Shown here piece after piece: positions 10,382-49,677 of a DNA stretch of 64,000 nucleotides. How positions within the stretch are numbered: position 1 is the stretch's first letter; every line of letters begins with the position of its first letter. The DNA comes from an uncultured Planctomycetia bacterium (GTDB taxonomy: Bacteria; Omnitrophota; Gorgyraeia; 2-02-FULL-51-18), in contig CAZVNB010000033.1 of NCBI GenBank assembly GCA_964628355.1, positions 4,965 to 68,964 of the forward strand, read 5' to 3'. The notes below the pieces were generated by a model. The model was not told the origin of the DNA, did not search any database, and saw only the letters and a list, made by a program, of their open reading frames with translations. Position numbers and translations under genes: made by a program.

Positions 10382-10694
10382 AGACGTATCGCACTTCGAT
10401 ATTATTCGACCCGAGCAGCCGAGCGACGGGCGCTAATGTGCCCACTTTGTTTTCAAATTCGACCACGACCACGTCGCGCGCGACAGCTTTCGGCGCCAGG
10501 TGTTTCAAAGCCGTTTTCGCCTTTTTCGCATCGCGCGTGATAATTTGAAAGTACCCCCTATTTTTTACCGCGTACGCACAAAGATGGATGATATAAACAC
10601 CGGCCATCGCCAAGGTCGCCGTGATTTGACCCAGTAGACCCGTTTCATTTTTGATTTCGAAATAAAGTTCTTTTTCGAGAGTGGCTCTAGCCAT
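10263..10694 (-). CDS. ACT-domain pair protein
   Basis: Two tandem ~65-aa units with the ACT-like pattern (EIKNETGLLGQITATLAMAGVYI ... and EFENKVGTLAPVARLLGSNNIEV ...). Located between pyrF and the helicase. Confidence 0.5.
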   Translation of the reverse strand: MARATLEKELYFEIKNETGLLGQITATLAMAGVYIIHLCAYAVKNRGYFQIITRDAKKAKTALKHLAPKAVARDVVVVEFENKVGTLAPVARLLGSNNIEVRYVYGTSSDGFKIIGVFSTTNNRKAVQIINEESGSFGTPSTG

Positions 10695-11403
10695 GAGATA
10701 TCTCCTTCAATATTTTCTCAGCCGCAACCAGGGGCTGAGGATGTTGCGTGATCGGGCGACCCACCACGATATAATCAGCCCCAAAAGCTATTGCCTCTTT
10801 GGGCGTCACGATGCGTTTTTGGTCCCCATGAGGCGCCCAAACAGGACGAACGCCCGGTGTTACGATAAGAAAATTTTTTCCTGTCACGCCTCGGATCAAT
10901 TTAATCTCCTGACCGGAGGCCACCACGCCGTCCAAGCCACAGCGCTGCACCAACACCGCCAAATCCTGTGCTTCTCGTTTCACTTTTTTTTTGATGCCGA
11001 TCTCTTTTAAATCCATATCCGTTAAACTTGTCAGAACCGTTACACCGAGAACTTTGGGAGGCGGAATTTTCTTTTCACTGGCGATTTTATGCACCGCCTG
11101 CATGGAAGTGTACATCATTGTTTTTCCACCCAGCGCGTGCACGTTCATCATAAAAACACCCATTTTCGTCGCCGCCTCGCAGGCCGAACCCACCGTGTTC
11201 GGGATATCGTGAAATTTGAGGTCAAGAAATACGCGGCATTGATAGGAATGAATCATCTCGACAGCCGCAGGTCCTACGGATGTGAAAAGCTCCTTGCCAA
11301 CCTTGAAAATTTTGACCAGGGGGGAAATTTTTTTGACGATTTTCTCCGCTTCGGTCAAATCTGAAAAATCGAGCGCGACCATGAGCACGTCTTCTTTTTT
11401 CAT
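10687..11403 (-). CDS. pyrF: Orotidine 5'-phosphate decarboxylase
   Basis: 238 aa; LMVALDF, FKVG, DLKFHDIPNTV and GADYIVVGRPI motifs. Confidence 0.9.
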   Translation of the reverse strand: MKKEDVLMVALDFSDLTEAEKIVKKISPLVKIFKVGKELFTSVGPAAVEMIHSYQCRVFLDLKFHDIPNTVGSACEAATKMGVFMMNVHALGGKTMMYTSMQAVHKIASEKKIPPPKVLGVTVLTSLTDMDLKEIGIKKKVKREAQDLAVLVQRCGLDGVVASGQEIKLIRGVTGKNFLIVTPGVRPVWAPHGDQKRIVTPKEAIAFGADYIVVGRPITQHPQPLVAAEKILKEISHG

Positions 11404-11439
11404 GGGGTTGCCTCCTTCATTGCCGGCGATTGACCATTT

Positions 11440-12378
11440 TTAAACCTTGATCGATCCGATCAGCTCTTTGAGATTTTTTAATTTTTCCTTTTTCATGAAA
11501 TTCTCCAAACCTTCAAGCAGTTCAAGTGTAATCGAAGGATTCATGAAATTAGCCGTGCCGACCTGCACCGCCGAAGCGCCTGCGATCAAAAACTCGAGCA
11601 TATCTTCGGTCCGAACGATTCCGCCCATTCCTAGCACCGGAATTTTGATCTTTTTACAGACTTCCCACGTCATTCGCACCGCAATCGGCCTCACACACGG
11701 TCCAGATAAACCCCCGGTTTTGTTCGCTAAAACGGGTCTGCGGGTTTTCACGTCAATAGCCATGGCAATAAAAGTATTGATCAGAGAAACCGCGTCCGCG
11801 CCGGCGCGTTCTGCGGCTATCGCCATTTTGCTGATGTCCGATACATCGGGCCCCAATTTTGCAATCAACGTTTTATCTGTCACCTGCCGCGTCGCCGAGA
11901 CGACTTTTTCGATCATGCCCTCGTCATGCGCGAACATTTTAACAAGAGTCAATGCTTCGGACTTCACGCTATAAGGAACGTTCGGACAAGATAAATTTAA
12001 TTCAAATCCATCAATGCCTTCGGCTTGATTCAAAATTTCGACAACCGAAACAAATTCTTCGGTGCTATAACCCATCACGCTCACAATAATCGGAATGTTC
12101 AGCTTCCGCAGATAAGGAAGTTTCTCTTCGATAAATTTTTCAGCTCCGGGATTTTGTAAACCAATCGCGTTCAGCATGCCAGAGGGCGTCTCGACAATGC
12201 GAGGAGGAGGGTTCCCGAGTCGGGGTTTGAGAGTAATGGTTTTGGTGACAATTCCGCCCAATCGTTTTAAATCGAAGAAATTTTCAAATTCTTTCGCGTG
12301 GCCGAATGTGCCAGAAGCCGCCAGCACAGGGTTTAGAAGCTTAATTTTCCCTATTTGTACGGAGATATCTAATCCCAT
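11440..12378 (-). CDS. pyrD: Dihydroorotate dehydrogenase catalytic subunit (class 1B)
   Basis: NPLVLASGTFG-like N-terminus, GLQNPG, NLSCPNV and GGI motifs. The likely start is MGLDISVQ (12378), not the listed upstream M. Confidence 0.9.
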   Translation of the reverse strand: MGLDISVQIGKIKLLNPVLAASGTFGHAKEFENFFDLKRLGGIVTKTITLKPRLGNPPPRIVETPSGMLNAIGLQNPGAEKFIEEKLPYLRKLNIPIIVSVMGYSTEEFVSVVEILNQAEGIDGFELNLSCPNVPYSVKSEALTLVKMFAHDEGMIEKVVSATRQVTDKTLIAKLGPDVSDISKMAIAAERAGADAVSLINTFIAMAIDVKTRRPVLANKTGGLSGPCVRPIAVRMTWEVCKKIKIPVLGMGGIVRTEDMLEFLIAGASAVQVGTANFMNPSITLELLEGLENFMKKEKLKNLKELIGSIKV

Positions 12379-13253
12379 AATATCTCCGAAGATTTGAACA
12401 CGGGACCTTCCGTGCATGCAATCGCAAAACGAAAACCAGACTGGAGACTGGAGGCTGGGGACTGGAGGCTATTTTCTTTGGTCTGCAGTCTGCCGTCTGC
12501 GGTCTGTTGTCTTACTTTGATCGCACATCCCAGACACGCCCCGAACCCGCAAGCCATCGGCACTTCCACGGATACTTCGCAAGGCACTTTGTATTTCTCG
12601 GAAATGGCAGAGACTGCTTTTAACATCTGGGTAGGACCACAACTATAGATTTGAGACTGGAGACTGGAGACTGGAGACTGGAGACTACGGTTCAAGAGCT
12701 CAGTAATAAATCCACGGTGACCTTTAGAACCATCGTCCGTGGCAATAAACACATTCACGCCAAGTTTTTTAAATTCTTTTTCGCAAAGCAAAAGCGTTTT
12801 ATGACGCGCTCCGAGCATCACATTCGTTTCCGCAATGTTGGCGGCCTTGTTTTTTATCAGAGTTTCAGCCAAATGGTAGAGTGGAGGAATCCCCACACCG
12901 CCGCCCACCAAAAAAATGTTTGTCTTCCGTCTCCTGTCTGCAGTCTGCGGTCTTGAGTTGAACCCCTTTCCCAAGGGCCCGATCACGTCAAGCGCATCCC
13001 CTTTTTTCACTTTCGACAAAAGTTCGGTGCCCTTGCCAACCATGTGGTAAAGAATTGAAAAAACGTCCTTTTTTGCGGCCAAAAAACTAAAAGGGCGTCC
13101 CAGAAGCGGGTCGTAGGAATTATGCGCGCAAAGAATTTGAACAAACTGGCCCGGACGGGCGGCTGCGGCAATATCCCGCGAGCGCAGTTTGAGCATCCAG
13201 TGGCCGGGAGCTATTTTTTCATTACCAATTACTGAACAATTTTTTTTATACAT
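12369..13253 (-). CDS. pyrK: Dihydroorotate dehydrogenase electron-transfer subunit (FAD / 2Fe-2S), carrying three in-frame repeat-encoded insertions
   Basis: FAD-binding RPFS, nucleotide-binding [11 protein letters not shown] and a C-terminal Cys cluster [10 protein letters not shown] ... C.EGPVF. At 294 aa it is ~40 aa longer than typical PyrK, owing to low-complexity inserts ([46 protein letters not shown]). Confidence 0.85.
12437..12954. repeat. Heptamer tandem repeats (AGACTGG)n and their inverted counterparts (GTCTGCN)n embedded in-frame in pyrK
   Basis: 12437-12469 (AGACTGG x4.5) faces 12481-12506 (GTCTGCN x3.5) as an inverted pair. 12654-12683 (AGACTGG x4) and 12922-12954 (GTCTNNN x4.5) form a second, distant pair. 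Confidence 0.8.
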
Positions 13254-16200
13254 GCGCCGGCAATGACGGGGTTGTGATGTTTTCGTGATACATCTGAAGC
13301 GAGGTCACTTTCATGGACTTTTCTTTCATCGCACGAATGCCGAGCACGGAGGCAATCGACCCCTCGATTGTCGTCACACACGGAACACCACGCGAAACAG
13401 CCAACGAACGAATCACAATTTCATCTTGCCGCGGTTTTTCTCCGCTGGGGGTGTTGATCACCAAATCCAGTTTCGATTGTTGCAGTAAATCAGTCGCGTT
13501 TGGACTTCCCTCTTTGATTTTTTTTAGCTCTTCGGCGGGCACGCCATTTTTCTTTAAGATATCCGCCGTTCCTTTTGTTGCCACTATTTTAAACTTCATC
13601 TCGTAAAGCGCTTTTGCAATCGGAACGATCGCGTTTTTGTCGCGGTCTTTCACGCTGACAAACACGGTGCCTGCCAGAGGCAATGTGGAATTGGCTGCCA
13701 TTTGTGCCTTGGCAAACGCCAACCCAAAATCCACGTCGATCCCCATCACTTCGCCGGTGGATTTCATTTCGGGTCCGAGTAGGATGTCTACGCCGCGAAA
13801 ACGCACAAAAGGAAGCACCACTTCTTTTACCGAATAGTAGAAAGGAGTGATTTCCTTGGTAAAATTCATGTCTTTTAGTTTTTGGCCCACCATGATTTTT
13901 GAAGCAAGTTTGGCCAATGGCACCCCAATGGCCTTGGAAACAAAAGGAATCGTACGCGAAGCGCGCGGATTAACCTCGAGCACGTACACGACGCCTGCTT
14001 TGACGGCAAACTGTACGTTCATAAGTCCGATAACGCCGAGTTCTTTGGCGATCGCGCGGGTCTGGCGTTTGATTTCTTCAATCACTTCTTTGTCCAGGGA
14101 ATACGGCGGAAGCGAACAAGCGCTATCCCCCGAATGAATTCCGGCCTGCTCGATATGTTCCATGACGCCGCCCACAACAAAGGTTTCTCCGTCTGCAATC
14201 ATATCCACGTCCACTTCTTTGGCGCCTTCTAAAAATTGATCCACCAAAATCGGACGATCGTATGAAATATCCGTGGAGCGTTTCATGTAATTTTCAAGAG
14301 ATATCTCGTCATAAATAACTTCCATGGCACGGCCGCCTAGCACATAGGACGGACGCACAAGTACGGGGTAACCGATAGCCGAGGCCTCTTTTTTTGCCTG
14401 TTCAAAATTGACCGCAGTGCCATTGACCGGCTGTTTGAACCCAAGTTTATCGAGCAGTTCTTTGAATTTCTTTCTGTCTTCGGCGCGGTCGATGGCCTCA
14501 GGGCTTGTCCCGATAATCGGGACACCCGCTTTTTTAAGTGATAAAGCGAGGTTGAGCGGCGTCTGCCCGCCAAATTGCACAATGACTCCGTTTGGTTTTT
14601 CCTTATCCACGATGTTCATAACATCTTCGAAGGTGACGGGCTCGAAATAAAGCCGGTCGGATGTGTCATAATCGGTCGAAACCGTTTCGGGATTGCAATT
14701 AACCATGATCGTTTCATATCCGATTTCTTTCAGAGCAAACGCCGCGTGGCAGCAGCAATAGTCGAATTCAATGCCTTGGCCGATGCGGTTGGGCCCTCCG
14801 CCCAAAATCATGATTTTTTTTCTTGAAGTCGTTCGGACTTCATCCTCGGCTTCGTAGGTCGAATAATAATAGGGAGTGAACGCCTCAAACTCCGCCGCGC
14901 AAGTATCGACCAGTTTATAGGAAGGGATAATATCCCATCCCTTTCTTTGTTGCCTGATTTCCGTTTCCGTCTTATGGAATATTTCACCCAATTGAATATC
15001 TGAAAAACCCAGTTCTTTCGCACGCCGCATGGTTTCTTTAGAAATGACGTCGCCGGCTTTGACCATCACCGTGATTTCTTTTTCAAATTCAACGATTTCA
15101 AATAAATTTTCCAAAAACCATCGGTCAATCTTGGTGATCTCGCACAATTTCTCCACGCTCATGCCTTCCAGCAAAGCGCGCTTCAAGTAAGCAAAACGTT
15201 CAGCATTGGGTGTTTTCAGATTTTCGATCAGATCGCCTGTGGCTTGCTTGGATTCGAAACCGGCCACCTTGATCTCAAGACCTCTTAAACCCTTTTGAAA
15301 GGCTTCCTTGAAAGTGCGTCCGATAGACATCACCTCACCCACCGATTTCATCTGCGTTGTCAGCGTGGTGTCTGCGCCCGGAAATTTTTCAAACGCGAAA
15401 CGTGGTATTTTTACGACACAATAATCAATGGCGGGTTCGAAACTCGCGGGCGTTTTTTTCGTGATATCATTCGGGATTTCATCCAGCGTATAACCCACGG
15501 CGAGTTTTGCCGCAATTTTTGCGATCGGAAAACCCGTGGCTTTGGAAGCCAGCGCCGAAGACCGGGACACACGCGGATTCATTTCGATCACGACCATGCG
15601 TCCATCTTTTGGATCGATCGCAAATTGAATGTTCGACCCGCCAGTCTCCACGCCGATTTCGCGGATACAAGCGATCGCCGCATCACGCATTTTTTGGTAT
15701 TCGCGATCGGTGAGCGTCTGAGCCGGGGCCACCGTAATTGAGTCACCCGTGTGCACGCCCATTGGATCAAAATTTTCTATTGAGCAGATAATAACTACGT
15801 TATCCTTTTTGTCGCGCATCAACTCCAGTTCAAATTCTTTCCAACCGACGATTGATTCTTCGATCAAAATTTCATGCGTCATCGAAAGCTGAAGTCCCAA
15901 CGCCGTGATTCTTTGAAATTCTTCCATCGTTGTGGCGATGCCGCCACCCGTGCCGCCCAGAGTAAAGCTGGGACGTATCACAAGAGGTAGCTTGATCTCC
16001 TCCAATACTTTCATGGCTTCTTGCGTGGAGTGCGCAAGGCCCGAGCGTGGAAGATCGAGCCCTATTTTCTGCATCGCTTTTTTAAAAAGTTGGCGATTCT
16101 CCGCTTTTTGAATGGATTCAATATTGACGCCGATCATTTGCACGCTGTATTTTTTGAAAATCCCCGCCTCGGTCGCCTTGACGGCAAGGTTGAGGCCCGT

Positions 16201-16479
16201 TTGTCCGCCAAGCGTCGGAAGCACCGCGTCCGGACGTTCTTCCTGAATGATTTTTTCCAAAAAATCTACCGTGATCGGCTCGATATAAGTGCAGTCTGCC
16301 GTCTGAGGATCCGTCATGATCGTCGCTGGGTTGGAATTAATCAACACAACCTCATAGCCGTCTTCGCGAAGCGCCTTACAAGCTTGCGTGCCGGAATAAT
16401 CGAACTCGCAGGCCTGCCCAATCACGATGGGGCCTGAGCCAATGATGAGAATTTTTTTAATGTCCGTGCGTTTTGGCAT
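13246..16479 (-). CDS. carB: Carbamoyl-phosphate synthase large subunit
   Basis: 1077 aa with two ATP-grasp halves and an MGS-like C-terminal domain. Confidence 0.95.
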
Positions 16480-17578
16480 CCGCGCCTTTCTTAAAATCCG
16501 TCATCATCTCAATAAACTTATCGAAGTGGTGCACAGCATCATGCGGCCCGGGAGCAGCCTCCGGATGGTATTGCACCGAAAATATGGGTAGTTTTTTATG
16601 CTGCATCCCTTCACAGGTGTTGTCATTTAAATTAACGTGGGTCATCATAACATTTTTGTCGGTGATCGAATCCATGTCCACCGCAAAACCATGATTCTGG
16701 GCCGTGATGTGCACACAACCTGACTTAAGATCTTTCACCGGTTGATTGCCGCCATGATGGCCAAATTTGAGTTTGAAAGTTTTTCCGCCAAAAGCCTGGC
16801 CCAAGATTTGATGCCCCAAACAAATTCCGAAGATCGGTATTTCATCCAGCAGCCCTTTTACGGTGTTCACCATGTAAGGAAGCGCTTCCGGGTCGCCGGG
16901 CCCGTTGGATAGAAAAAGTCCATCCGGTTGATAAGATAGAATCTCATTTTTTGTGGTCGTAGCCGGAACAACCTTTACTTGGCAATTTCTCGAAGCCAAA
17001 TTTCTCAAGATATTGAGTTTGATCCCCGAGTCGATGGCTACGACATTAAACTTTCCCTCCCGGTTCCAATCATAAGGCCTTGCGCACATCACTTCCTTGA
17101 TTAAATCACGCCCTAGTAGCCCCGGGGATGAAACCGTTTTTCTCACTAAATTTTTTTCGTTCAGATCCTGGGTAGAAATCGCGCCTTTTTTCGCGCCTTG
17201 TTCGCGCAAATGTTTGGTCAATTTTCGCGTGTCAATGCCTTCGATGCCCACGACGCGATTTCTTTTTAAATAAGAGCCTAACTCTTCGCTCGCGCGCCAG
17301 TTGGAATAAATACGGCTCAGCTCTTTGACGATGAAACCTTCGACAAAAGGCCGCGTCGACTCGACATCCTCTTGGTTGACGCCATAATTGCCAATCAAGG
17401 GGTAAGTCATGCACACCATCTGCCCCTTATAGGAAGGGTCTGTAAGAATTTCCTGATAGCCGGTCATGCTGGTGTTGAATACGACTTCCCCGTAGGCTTC
17501 ACCCTCGGCCCCAAAAGAATACCCGCGAAATGTAAGTCCGTCCTCCAATGCCAGGACTGCTTCTTTTCGCCTCAACAA
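16457..17578 (-). CDS. carA: Carbamoyl-phosphate synthase small subunit (glutamine amidotransferase)
   Basis: CPSase small-chain N-terminal domain plus a class I GATase (GICLGHQ, H..E). The likely start is TTG at 17578, preceded by AGGAGG at a 6-nt spacing; the listed ORF start at 17704 would overlap pyrC extensively. Confidence 0.9.
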
Positions 17579-32506: not shown

Positions 32507-32586
32507 AAGGGGACTGGAGGCCGCACGTTAGTGCTAGAGTAACTGAAACAGCCGCACGTTTCAAGAAAATTGAGTCTTTGAAGTTT

Positions 32587-47735: not shown

Positions 47736-48524
47736 TTACTCAAAAGTAAAAGTACCGTCCGAAGTGATTCCCAATCGGTCTCGTCGTTCGGCGCGCAAGT
47801 CACGTACCGGATTGCCCCCCCAAGCCCCCTTGGCAGGAATTTTAGTGCCCTTAGGTAGATAGCTGCAAGGAGCAATGGAGGCCCCGTCTCCGATTTCGCA
47901 GTCGGGCATGATCACCGAGCCAAGACCAACTGAGGCGTTATTGCCTATTTTGGTGGGTGCCAAGCGCAAAAAACCACGTTCCGAGGCATGACAAATTAGC
48001 GCTACACCTCCACCGATCAGCACATTGTTGCCTATTTCAAGCATCGATAGATCCGCAAGACCAGCTGTATTTATATTCACTCCTTCCCCTACCTTGGCTC
48101 CCATGAGACGATAAAACAACGTTTGAAACGGCGAAAGACGTAAAACATCCAAAAAGGCGCTATTGGCGATTAAAATCATAGAGTTGTATCCCATCCACCG
48201 AAGGGCTTCTGGGGAATGAATGGCGTAAAGACCCGATGCAATCTTAAATCTGAAAATATTCTTTGTGAGAACGCAAAGAAAAATCAGTGTTGTGCCAAAA
48301 ATAAAATAACCCAATGAAATTGAAAAAGAAAATGCCAGCACTCTGAGCCAAAGTGCGTATGCCACTGTCAATTTCCACGTGCCGATAAGAAAAAAGACCA
48401 TGGGAAAAAGAGAAAAACCTAGCACAAAAATAGCTATAAAATGCAGAAAAATAATCCAAAGCTCAAAACGCGTGGCTTCCCACTTGGCTTTTTTACTTTT
48501 ATCATTCGGACTAGCTTCAGTCAT
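47736..48524 (-). CDS. Membrane-anchored hexapeptide-repeat (left-handed beta-helix) acyl/acetyltransferase
   Basis: N-terminal ~4 TM helices. C-terminal hexapeptide repeats (GAKVGEGVNINTAGLADLSMLEIGNNVLIGGGV...IGNNASVGLGSVI...IGDGASIA). Confidence 0.6.
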   Translation of the reverse strand: MTEASPNDKSKKAKWEATRFELWIIFLHFIAIFVLGFSLFPMVFFLIGTWKLTVAYALWLRVLAFSFSISLGYFIFGTTLIFLCVLTKNIFRFKIASGLYAIHSPEALRWMGYNSMILIANSAFLDVLRLSPFQTLFYRLMGAKVGEGVNINTAGLADLSMLEIGNNVLIGGGVALICHASERGFLRLAPTKIGNNASVGLGSVIMPDCEIGDGASIAPCSYLPKGTKIPAKGAWGGNPVRDLRAERRDRLGITSDGTFTFE

Positions 48525-48604: not shown

Positions 48605-48839
48605 GGTTACCAGCACCCTTACTTGTGCCCTTACACATCTAGTTGGCAGGACACTTTTTTCTTTTAAGCAAGACAGAGTATGCAAGTGCAGTTTCTTGGT
48701 AACTAATTCCATCTCCTTGTGTCCCCTCCACTGATTAGGGTATGTGCGTACGTGCTTTTAATGTCTTGCTTAAAAGAAAAAAGTGTCCTGCCAACGTGAG
48801 TTTGAGTGGATAGCTTTACCGAGAATAAGGGTGCTGGCA
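48605..48839. repeat. Compound inverted-repeat element (inverton- or MITE-like)
   Basis: A perfect 32-bp inverted repeat (48643-48674 and 48763-48794) flanks an 88-bp core. An outer 16-bp inverted repeat (48605-48620 and 48824-48839) has one mismatch. The element lies in the divergent intergenic region between 47736-48524 (minus) and 48928-49677 (plus). Confidence 0.8.
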
Positions 48840-48927
48840 ACTGAGTATAGCTCAGTTAATGAGATATTCTTAATGCTGGTTCGTGAAATTCTTAATTAAA
48901 AGAACATGAGTATGCTAAACTCACCGC

Positions 48928-49677
48928 ATGAGTCAAACACAAAAGTTTATTTTGGTAACTGGAGGCACCCGGGGAATCGGAAAAGCGATCACCCTGTCGC
49001 AGGTAAAAAAGACTTGTACGATTTTTTTAAATTACCTACGTGACGATGCTTCCGCGATGAAGGTGAAAAAAACCGCCGAAAAAAAAGGTTCCCGTGTCGT
49101 TCTTCTGCCAGGCAATGTCGGTGATGCGGAAACGGTATCCTGCCTATTTCAGTCAATTCAAAAAGAAACAAACCGCCTAGATGCCCTGATTCACAGCGCG
49201 GCACTCGGGGTTTTTAAACCCGTCCATCAATTGCGCGTGAAAGATTGGGATATTTCACTCGACGTGAATGCGAAGGCATTTTTGCTCCTCACGCAGGCAA
49301 CGTTGCCATTGATGAAAAAATACGGTGGTAAAATCCTTGCAATCTCAAGCCTCGGATCACGGCGTTTCACACCCAATTACGGAGCCATCGGCATTTCGAA
49401 AGCAGCGCTAGAAAACCTGGTGCGTTATCTTGCTGTTGAACTGGCACCGCATAAAATTCATGTAAATGCGGTGTCAGGGGGACTGGTCGAGACCGATTCT
49501 CTCAAGATGTTCCCCAATTTTGAGTCAATGAAGAAAGCTTACCTTTCTCGAACGCCGGGAGCTCGTCTGGGAAAACCACAAGATATTGCGGATATCGTTT
49601 CCTTTCTTTTAAGTCCTCAGGCTAACTGGATTTACGGTCAGACGATTATCGCGGATGGCGGCTATTCTCTCTTTTAA
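48928..49677 (+). CDS. SDR-family oxidoreductase (FabG-like)
   Basis: TGGTRGIGKAI Rossmann motif, NAA and S...Y..K catalytic elements. Confidence 0.8.
   Translation: MSQTQKFILVTGGTRGIGKAITLSQVKKTCTIFLNYLRDDASAMKVKKTAEKKGSRVVLLPGNVGDAETVSCLFQSIQKETNRLDALIHSAALGVFKPVHQLRVKDWDISLDVNAKAFLLLTQATLPLMKKYGGKILAISSLGSRRFTPNYGAIGISKAALENLVRYLAVELAPHKIHVNAVSGGLVETDSLKMFPNFESMKKAYLSRTPGARLGKPQDIADIVSFLLSPQANWIYGQTIIADGGYSLF

Follow-up and report, generated by a model that had tools for sequence, protein, structure and literature searches.

How tandem 7-nt repeats come to stand inside a housekeeping gene, and what keeps them there, is the question raised by pyrK in the 64,000-nt stretch of contig CAZVNB010000033.1 (GenBank assembly GCA_964628355.1) that was analysed here and is referred to below as the window. 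A first-pass annotation of this DNA had reported in-frame heptamer arrays within the gene, and Tandem Repeats Finder (TRF) together with a pattern search bore this out: pyrK carries four period-7 arrays at three loops, two of them (CAGACNG)n and two (CCAGTCT)n on the coding strand (Table 1). On balance, the arrays are probably heptanucleotide simple-sequence repeats that are made and renewed at the DNA level by slippage and template switching, and that are kept in permissive loops of the protein.

Four in-frame heptamer arrays in pyrK

At period 7, TRF returned the segments 12438-12467 (4.3 copies), 12481-12506 (3.7 copies) and 12653-12686 (4.9 copies, 100% match). When up to three mismatches were allowed, AGACTGGAGACTGG was matched 17 times in the window against 2.5 matches expected, and (AGACNNN)2AGAC with at most one mismatch was matched 12 times against 0.06 expected, with all 12 matches inside pyrK; the arrays are head-to-tail 7-nt repeats above chance, as heptanucleotide simple-sequence repeats are. 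Array 1 is of the purine-rich (NAGACNN)5 type and is flanked by GPLGKGF and the GGGVGIPP motif; it is more degenerate, and (AGACNNN)3 matches 12922-12953 on the minus strand without a mismatch. Array 2 is roughly complementary to array 1 and, in the structural model, spans the end of helix 183-192 into strand 199-205. The third loop holds a 24-residue insert laid out as (CAGACNG)4-5, a 9-nt loop and (CCAGYCY)4-5, the two arms of which are arrays 3a and 3b; array 3a is supported by the second of the TRF segments, by pattern matches at 12474-12512 and by the RNA fold, and array 3b shares the reading frame of array 2, the two encoding an identical 11-residue module. The open reading frame (ORF) 12369-13253 is open through all of the arrays, which are in frame and free of stop codons.

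The product of this ORF is PyrK: it has an FNR-like FAD/NAD fold and a C-terminal four-Cys 2Fe-2S motif, and its gene lies next to pyrD. The protein matches Pfam PF00175 and PF10418, the Fe-S profile stopping at residue 251 owing to the insert; its sequence matches the solved structures of L. lactis PyrK in the PDB (5ksw_B, E = 5e-30; 1ep1_B, E = 1e-29), and a Foldseek search with its AlphaFold2 model gave a target-normalised TM score of 0.79. Alignment with orthologues showed Cys235, Cys240, Cys243 and Cys280 to be invariant. All named homologues are from Candidatus Omnitrophota; leaving identical sequences aside, the nearest relative shares only 70% identity.

Arrays at the same loops across Omnitrophota

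A total of 169 loci encoding PyrK relatives were collected, with 147 distinct pyrK genes, 80 of Omnitrophota type and 67 from other phyla. Period-7 arrays stand at the same loops in 45 of the 80 Omnitrophota-type genes and in none of the 67 from other phyla. These 45 genes hold 97 arrays, 21-42 nt long with a mode of five units, and not one array of the frame-friendly periods 6, 9 or 12 was found in the same 147 genes. Period 7 accounts for 175 arrays in 1.28 Mb of locus DNA, where each of the other periods between 4 and 12 has 6-39. Across 98 Omnitrophota-type loci, array density is 1.44 per kb in pyrK and 0.049 per kb in the other 451 kb, a 29-fold difference, and the arrays are concentrated in the last 600 nt of pyrK.

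Orthologues at 56-70% identity carry arrays at the same three loops. AGAC/GTCT-type arrays occur there in loci L085, L166 and L001, CGACCAG with GTCGC units in L081, and CAGAAGA with TCTGTCY units in L168; loops 1 and 2 of L167 and L169 carry GCTCGGA with CCTCCGA, and their loop 3 carries either GACGATA with TATCGTC or CGGTAGT with CCGACTA, and L088 has at each of the three loops a local hairpin of its own, with its own unit. In a second Omnitrophota clade of PyrK, about 40% identical to the window protein, arrays of other units are found at the same loops and at one further loop. According to the first-pass annotation, its view of the arrays would fail if relatives had the same segments as conserved non-repetitive sequence; this is not so, the relatives' sequence there being repetitive and mostly different. 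The feature is an Omnitrophota-wide hot spot in the pyrK loops and not the oddity of one genome.

The accompanying proposal, that a genome-specific minisatellite had colonised pyrK, is not supported, since relatives carry arrays at the same loops and the arrays of the window are confined to pyrK: period scans at several stringencies found no period-7 array elsewhere in the 64 kb, nor is there a cryptic period-7 excess outside the gene. A related unit had also been pointed out at 32509. Positions 32509-32521 are indeed an exact 13-mer match to the array; however, about 0.3 matches of this kind are expected by chance over all array 13-mers (an estimate), and the unit, single and intergenic, was rejected as an array copy. 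A 14-mer common to the pyrK arrays and to carB 16291-16304 ('PQTADC') was likewise rejected, because about 15 exact 14-mer matches between two places are expected by chance in 64 kb (again an estimate) and the two are read in different frames.

Array sites and the protein

The first-pass annotation had placed the 24-residue insert between the third and fourth Cys ligands of the 2Fe-2S cluster, and alignment with insert-free orthologues agrees: the ligands in question are Cys243 and Cys280, which lie 37 residues apart in the window protein, and orthologues without the insert (P0096, P0110 and P0120) have the usual short spacing. In L. lactis PyrK this spacing is presumably 15, on the ligand positions that we take from 1EP1-1EP3. 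The other two arrays had been assigned to surface loops, and this too is supported by the AlphaFold2 model, in which the predicted local distance difference test score (pLDDT) has a mean of 83 and is 62 at residues 101-110, 74 at 191-200 and below 50 at 252-270; all three array sites are loops that the model predicts with low confidence. The arrays are in-frame insertions at surface loops of a housekeeping protein, except that the middle array, in loop 2, is hardly a net insertion, the loop being 20 residues long against a family mode of 19. Loop lengths across PyrK relatives already range from 10 to 52 residues, and in each of the three loops of 120 relatives, residues seven positions apart are identical about twice as often as in the background.

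No intact gene sampled has its arrays out of frame, and translation of the arrays is therefore most likely, presumably into short, disordered loops at the protein surface. Splicing or bypass of the inserts was rejected as the main explanation, since both the frame and the stop-free state are kept in every intact gene. The inserts also affect annotation in Omnitrophota: they truncate Pfam matches, the Fe-S domain being flagged "weak" in many relatives, and they raise apparent divergence.

Turnover of the arrays, and whether they are genuine

Nucleotide identity is mostly lower in the inserts than in the rest of the gene; the exception is the comparison of the window with L085, at 0.80 inside and 0.65 outside. 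L118 and L135 are about 90% identical in the flanks and have unrelated repeats at loops 1 and 2, with an octamer in L135, and L083, the closest relative of the window gene, has lost almost the whole loop-3 hairpin. Among relatives that are 84-90% identical, whole arrays have been replaced, and close pairs are either identical or fully replaced. These comparisons indicate that the arrays evolve faster than the surrounding gene, with units that differ between lineages and turn over quickly, and that arrays and hairpins which appear fresh are near perfect and later decay. The three loops would then be slippage-prone sites across Omnitrophota, at which the unit is replaced again and again.

Repeats can be mis-assembled, and the exact PyrK protein of the window is on record from one contig only; the first-pass annotation itself had named assembly artefacts as a finding that would overturn its view. 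However, the arrays, at 21-42 nt, are shorter than a read, the reading frame is intact, and homologous arrays are present in NCBI, ENA, JGI and Logan contigs. Moreover, identical array-bearing genes recur in contigs from separate collections (L083/L084/L087, L110/L111 and L089/L090). Since the arrays are identical in same-strain contigs of separate collections and samples, they are real and are not hypervariable at the consensus level, and an assembly or sequencing artefact is hardly credible as their source.

Irregularities of another kind were also seen. In L138, a contig of 5.7 kb, pyrK is present twice in inverted orientation, both copies being frameshifted and each the reverse complement of the other; the contig is probably a palindromic chimera rather than a true pair of pseudogenes. 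The pyrK genes of L094 and L095 are about 99% identical at their ends and about 65% identical in a central block of about 270 nt, which runs from after the loop-1 array through the loop-2 array; this pattern is either a recombination mosaic or an assembly chimera.

The same data bear on phase variation, in which the gain or loss of one 7-nt unit would shift the frame and serve as a contingency switch of de novo pyrimidine synthesis in nucleotide-scavenging cells. The unit is non-triplet and the repeats stand within an ORF, in part as perfect runs (five units at 12654-12688), and Omnitrophota include host-dependent nanobacteria that might salvage pyrimidines. Against this, the arrays, short at six units or fewer, are found in the 3' half of pyrK, a switch has no need of several arrays per gene, the same arrays recur across separate collections and samples, and pyrK is in frame at 164 of 165 loci, the single frameshifted locus being L138. 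Phase variation is highly improbable on this evidence.

Inverted arrays and predicted RNA folding

The arrays of the window had been described as inverted pairs. The inverted relation is real but imperfect, with 92% complementarity between 12437-12448 and 12481-12492 and 77% between 12437-12462 and 12922-12947. That such arrays could form hairpins, as had been suggested, is borne out by predicted folds, which are weak in the window (z about -2.6 to -2.9). In the minimum-free-energy fold, 12954-12922 (array 1) pairs with 12686-12653 (array 2), a helix spanning about 240 nt, and 12512-12437 is predicted to form a local hairpin of -21.6 kcal/mol (z -2.64). Window structures have z of about -2.5 to -2.9 in general, -2.85 for a 326-nt segment and 0.06 for the 551-nt region as a whole. 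In relatives, the hairpins are very stable, at -37 to -54 kcal/mol with z of -7.8 to -8.9. Within the AGAC family, the hairpin has -41.7 kcal/mol in L085, -29.1 in L166 and -20.7 in the window, without compensating changes, and the loop-3 hairpin of the window looks like an old, weakened copy.

Arrays of the same gene are related more often than arrays of different genes, in both orientations. With at most one mismatch, 7 of 82 same-gene pairs have related units in inverted orientation, against 39 of 4574 between-gene pairs; in direct orientation the counts are 11 of 82 and 119 of 4574. When pairs were scored by duplex energy, complementarity at p<0.05 was present in 9 of 37 multi-array genes (about 2 expected); in four more, the window gene among them, p was 0.055-0.064. 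Complementary arrays are found in about a third of the multi-array genes, and most array pairs are unrelated. Complementarity between loops 1 and 2 is seen in four unrelated unit families (AGAC, CGAC, GCTCGGA/CCTCCGA and CAGAAGA/TCTGTCY); most array-bearing genes lack such pairing or have unrelated arrays, and within a family the pairing decays.

One explanation of these patterns is selection for structure in the mRNA, namely a long-range helix between loops 1 and 2 that closes about 240 nt encoding the NAD-binding domain, and a hairpin between the codons of the third and fourth Cys. It would be kept for some purpose, for instance to pause ribosomes at domain boundaries or cofactor sites, to stabilise the mRNA or to tune the operon, and the sequence would be free to change while pairing was kept. 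Such selection is consistent with the layout of sense, antisense, then sense-antisense arrays that recurs with different units in the window, L085, L166, L081, L167/L169 and L168, with the stability of the relatives' hairpins, with the excess of complementary pairs and with the pairing of arrays 1 and 2 in the window's own fold. However, most multi-array genes have arrays that are unrelated or directly related, the hairpin is missing in the close orthologues L083, P0009, P0084, P0096, P0110 and P0120, pairing decays uncompensated from L085 through L166 to the window, the folds of the window itself are weak, and an Rfam E-value scan of 10500-17500 gave no match in pyrK. Selected mRNA structure is, on these grounds, distinctly unlikely.

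Two further points concern the RNA. PyrR or another known RNA element in pyrK was rejected on the empty Rfam scan, and a loose resemblance to the PyrR-binding consensus was judged to be coincidence. Read by eye, the polarity of the hairpins is constant, with a purine-rich 5' arm and a pyrimidine-rich 3' arm (the window, L081, L085, L088 and L166-L169), and in these hairpin-type genes loops 1 and 2 show the same purine-rich then pyrimidine-rich polarity.

Repeats elsewhere in the pyr loci, and mobile elements

The few arrays of the relatives that lie outside pyrK are in loops or tails of pyr-operon proteins (PyrD, CarB and PyrC) or form intergenic hairpins. Heptamer arrays are present in the PyrD loop right after the SCPNIK motif (L095, L102, L108 and L124), in the CarB C-terminal tail immediately ahead of the start of pyrK (L018, L106, L107 and L124) and in an N-terminal loop of PyrC (L001:473-507). 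Inverted pairs are present between carA and carB at L083:653-756, as (AGAGCAA)n / (TTGCTCT)n, and upstream of carB at L002:2195-2620, where they are of the AAGCGTW type.

Repeats of other kinds were also seen. A small palindrome, CCTGCCTGCCGGCAGG(CAGG), read as 'PACRQG' or 'CLPDRQA', is nested in heptamer arrays of other Omnitrophota pyrK genes and occurs elsewhere in those loci as well. Its sites are L099:887-902, loop 2 of L110/L111, loop 3 of L093, loop 2 of L168, L112:4548-4563 and L147:7666-7685; it looks like a separate tiny dispersed element, and it is absent from the 64-kb window. Loops 1 and 2 of PyrK in L002, L005 and L109 hold longer palindromes in frame, resembling repetitive extragenic palindromic (REP) elements ('SLRGAQRRSNL', 'ILRFAQDD' and 'LSAEGGPASGGK'); the loops therefore accept several kinds of repetitive DNA and not heptamers alone.

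These findings raise the possibility that the arrays are small, non-autonomous mobile palindromic elements, similar to Rickettsia palindromic elements (RPEs), which insert in frame in permissive loops and whose units are genome-specific dispersed repeats. In-frame palindromic insertions are documented for RPEs (PMC10969869). In L002 the AAGCGTW unit occurs upstream of carB as well as in pyrK, L001 has AGTTCGG in both pyrC and pyrK, with the unit present again in L093, and the REP-like elements and the CCTGCCTGCCGGCAGG palindrome stand at the same loops or inside arrays. However, the unit family of the window has no copy outside pyrK in the 64 kb, and no further copy of a dispersed multi-copy family with a conserved consensus was found there at any threshold. 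No defined or conserved ends, target duplication or full-length consensus were seen in the arrays, whose copy number varies from 3 to 6. A 7-bp duplication would be indistinguishable from the period-7 array itself, and this applies equally to the idea that 7-bp target duplications of the nested small palindrome seeded the arrays. Arrays at different loops of one gene are usually of unrelated units, and elements with no relation to one another would have to recognise specific targets in order to insert at precisely these three loops in many lineages. In addition, among 5.8 billion proteins there are few long (CCAGTCT)n arrays: a search with the synthetic peptide (SLQSPVS)6, which is uninformative on short arrays, gave five weak matches, all of them short ORFs and a cyanobacterial ORF among them. 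Mobile elements are thus an unlikely explanation of the arrays.

A probable DNA-level origin and the observations that strain it

The explanation that we prefer, renewal of heptanucleotide repeats at the DNA level, would proceed in a few steps. Replication slippage would produce arrays in which a 7-nt unit is repeated three to six times, template switching could copy a run into another loop of the same gene, and inverted copying, by fold-back or strand switching, would give complementary arms and quasi-palindromic hairpins. Only in-frame, stop-free arrays in structurally permissive loops would survive, since pyrK is needed. A DNA-level origin is favoured because period 7 is preferred over frame-friendly lengths, turnover is fast, hairpins decay, and units are exchanged between sites in two orientations. 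Heptameric repeats are over-represented in bacteria, for which polymerase slippage and the polymerase footprint have been put forward (PMC4692102; PMC4679880), and the dominance of period 7 fits this over-representation and the slippage idea.

Several observations weigh against this explanation. The 29-fold excess over carB, pyrD and pyrF exceeds what tolerance of loops obviously predicts, and in Planctomycetota heptamer arrays are present in the flanking DNA and absent from pyrK. The arrays of one clade differ in unit but not in position or length; such a change at fixed array length needs homogenisation without single-unit slips, because a slip of 7 nt breaks the frame. The complementarity of loops 1 and 2, kept with four unrelated unit families, looks like covariation, and slippage and template switching are themselves inferred from consensus sequences. 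The phylum-specific concentration in pyrK, the fixed position and length, and the recurrent complementarity of loops 1 and 2 are not explained by a purely mutational account, and because of these three observations selected RNA or DNA structure, or targeted rewriting, stays alive as a minority reading.

In its broadest form, the minority reading is that of a position-specific, sequence-independent feature of pyrK, with paired 7-nt arrays that act as an mRNA helix and hairpin, or as slipped or cruciform DNA, and that are maintained or actively rewritten. Its purpose might, for example, be translation pausing at domain junctions and right before the fourth Fe-S ligand, or gating of carB-pyrK-pyrD-pyrF expression. 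We regard such a feature as quite improbable. No precedent for a regulatory or co-translational device encoded by self-renewing microsatellites was found described in the searchable literature.

Features of the window

The ORF list and Pfam matches place carB, pyrK, pyrD and pyrF in a minus-strand operon in the window; the positions of these genes and of the pyrK arrays are collected in Table 1.

Table 1. Positions in the window of the pyr genes, the heptamer arrays of pyrK and the codons of two 2Fe-2S ligands.
Feature	Position	Strand	Description
carB	13246-16479	minus	Pfam CPSase
pyrK	12369-13253	minus	294 aa; FAD / 2Fe-2S electron-transfer subunit of dihydroorotate dehydrogenase B; between carB and pyrD
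pyrD	11440-12417	minus	Pfam DHO_dh; directly downstream of pyrK
pyrF	10687-11403	minus	Pfam OMPdecase
Array 1	12920-12954	minus	Loop 1, residues 101-111; coding AAGACCG CAGACTG CAGACAG GAGACGG AAGACAA; sequence read directly
Array 2	12647-12688	minus	Loop 2, residues 190-200; coding (CCAGTCT)5, perfect at 12654-12688; TRF and period scan
Array 3a	12480-12512	minus	5' arm of loop-3 hairpin; coding AAGACAA CAGACCG CAGACGG CAGACTG CAGACC
Loop of loop-3 hairpin	12471-12479	minus	9 nt, coding AAGAAAATA, within residues K-EN; sequence and fold
Array 3b	12437-12470	minus	3' arm of loop-3 hairpin; coding GCCTCCAGTCCCCAGCCTCCAGTCTCCAGTCTG; TRF row, inverted repeat and fold
Cys243 to Cys280 codons	12414-12527	minus	Third ligand 12525-12527, fourth ligand 12414-12416; from translation and insert-free alignment

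The PyrD of the window has SCPNVPYSVKSEALTLVKMFAHDEG after the catalytic-loop motif, at a position where relatives carry arrays; in PyrD this segment is usually short and Gly-rich. The SCPNVPYSVKSEALTLVKMFAHDEG segment may be an old, fully decayed insert in which periodicity is now not detectable. Away from the operon, a perfect 34-nt inverted repeat (48642-48675 / 48762-48795) surrounds an 86-nt spacer in the gap of about 400 nt between the divergent ORFs 47736-48524 (minus strand) and 48928-49677 (plus strand). It is extended by weaker outer complementarity, about 48606-48625 versus 48828-48842, and has a geometry like that of an invertible promoter switch or a small miniature inverted-repeat transposable element (MITE).

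Significance and comparison with known systems

Non-triplet repeats are expected to be purged from essential coding DNA, and in pyrK they have lasted, always at these loops, in over half of the sampled Omnitrophota genes. If the process is purely mutational, pyrK offers an unusually clean natural system for the birth, inverted copying and decay of microsatellites under frame constraint, for the way in which such DNA creates new disordered protein segments, even beside an Fe-S site, and for asking what makes a gene a hot spot; if the pairing is selected, the arrays represent a new kind of coding-region RNA element. No paper describing heptamer arrays in pyrK loops was found in the searchable literature, and five known systems offer the nearest comparisons.

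A 2007 survey, which PMC4692102 and PMC4679880 cite, described prokaryotic long simple-sequence repeats (LSSRs) of heptanucleotide unit. As cited there, LSSRs resemble the pyrK arrays in having head-to-tail 7-nt units, a preference for seven and a proposed origin by polymerase slippage; they are, again as cited, mostly intergenic, and repeats whose unit length is not divisible by three are under-represented within genes. In contrast, the pyrK arrays are intragenic and in frame, have 3-6 units, occupy fixed loops of one housekeeping gene phylum-wide and often form complementary pairs.

The cyanobacterial short tandemly repeated repetitive (STRR) sequences, such as CCCCAGT, and the TAACTGA repeats of Beggiatoaceae are likewise lineage-typical tandem heptamers. 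One arm in the window contains CCCCAG, which we take to be STRR-like. However, STRR and TAACTGA repeats are dispersed, a few fixed units being present in hundreds of copies, most of them intergenic, whereas the units in pyrK vary by site and by species and none lies outside pyrK in the window.

Like the pyrK arrays, RPEs are palindromic DNA standing in frame in essential genes, where they add surface peptides compatible with the fold (PMC10969869); those peptides are translated in RPEs and presumably also in the pyrK arrays. RPEs are dispersed families of 100-150 bp with a conserved consensus and are not tandem; the pyrK arrays, by contrast, have no consensus element and no dispersal in the window, and their arms are made of 7-nt units.

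Simple-sequence-repeat contingency loci share with pyrK an intragenic repeat whose unit is not a multiple of three. The pyrK arrays differ from them in that no off-phase alleles were seen in the consensus assemblies, in that the gene is a housekeeping gene, and in that the arrays are several and short.

Lastly, Borg elements carry amino-acid tandem repeats, and their coding repeats reportedly have units divisible by three. The unit in pyrK is 7 nt, so each unit is read in all three frames and the encoded peptide has a period of 7 residues. What Borg repeats and pyrK arrays have in common is that both are fast-evolving tandem repeats that create disordered segments of protein (PMC9879509).

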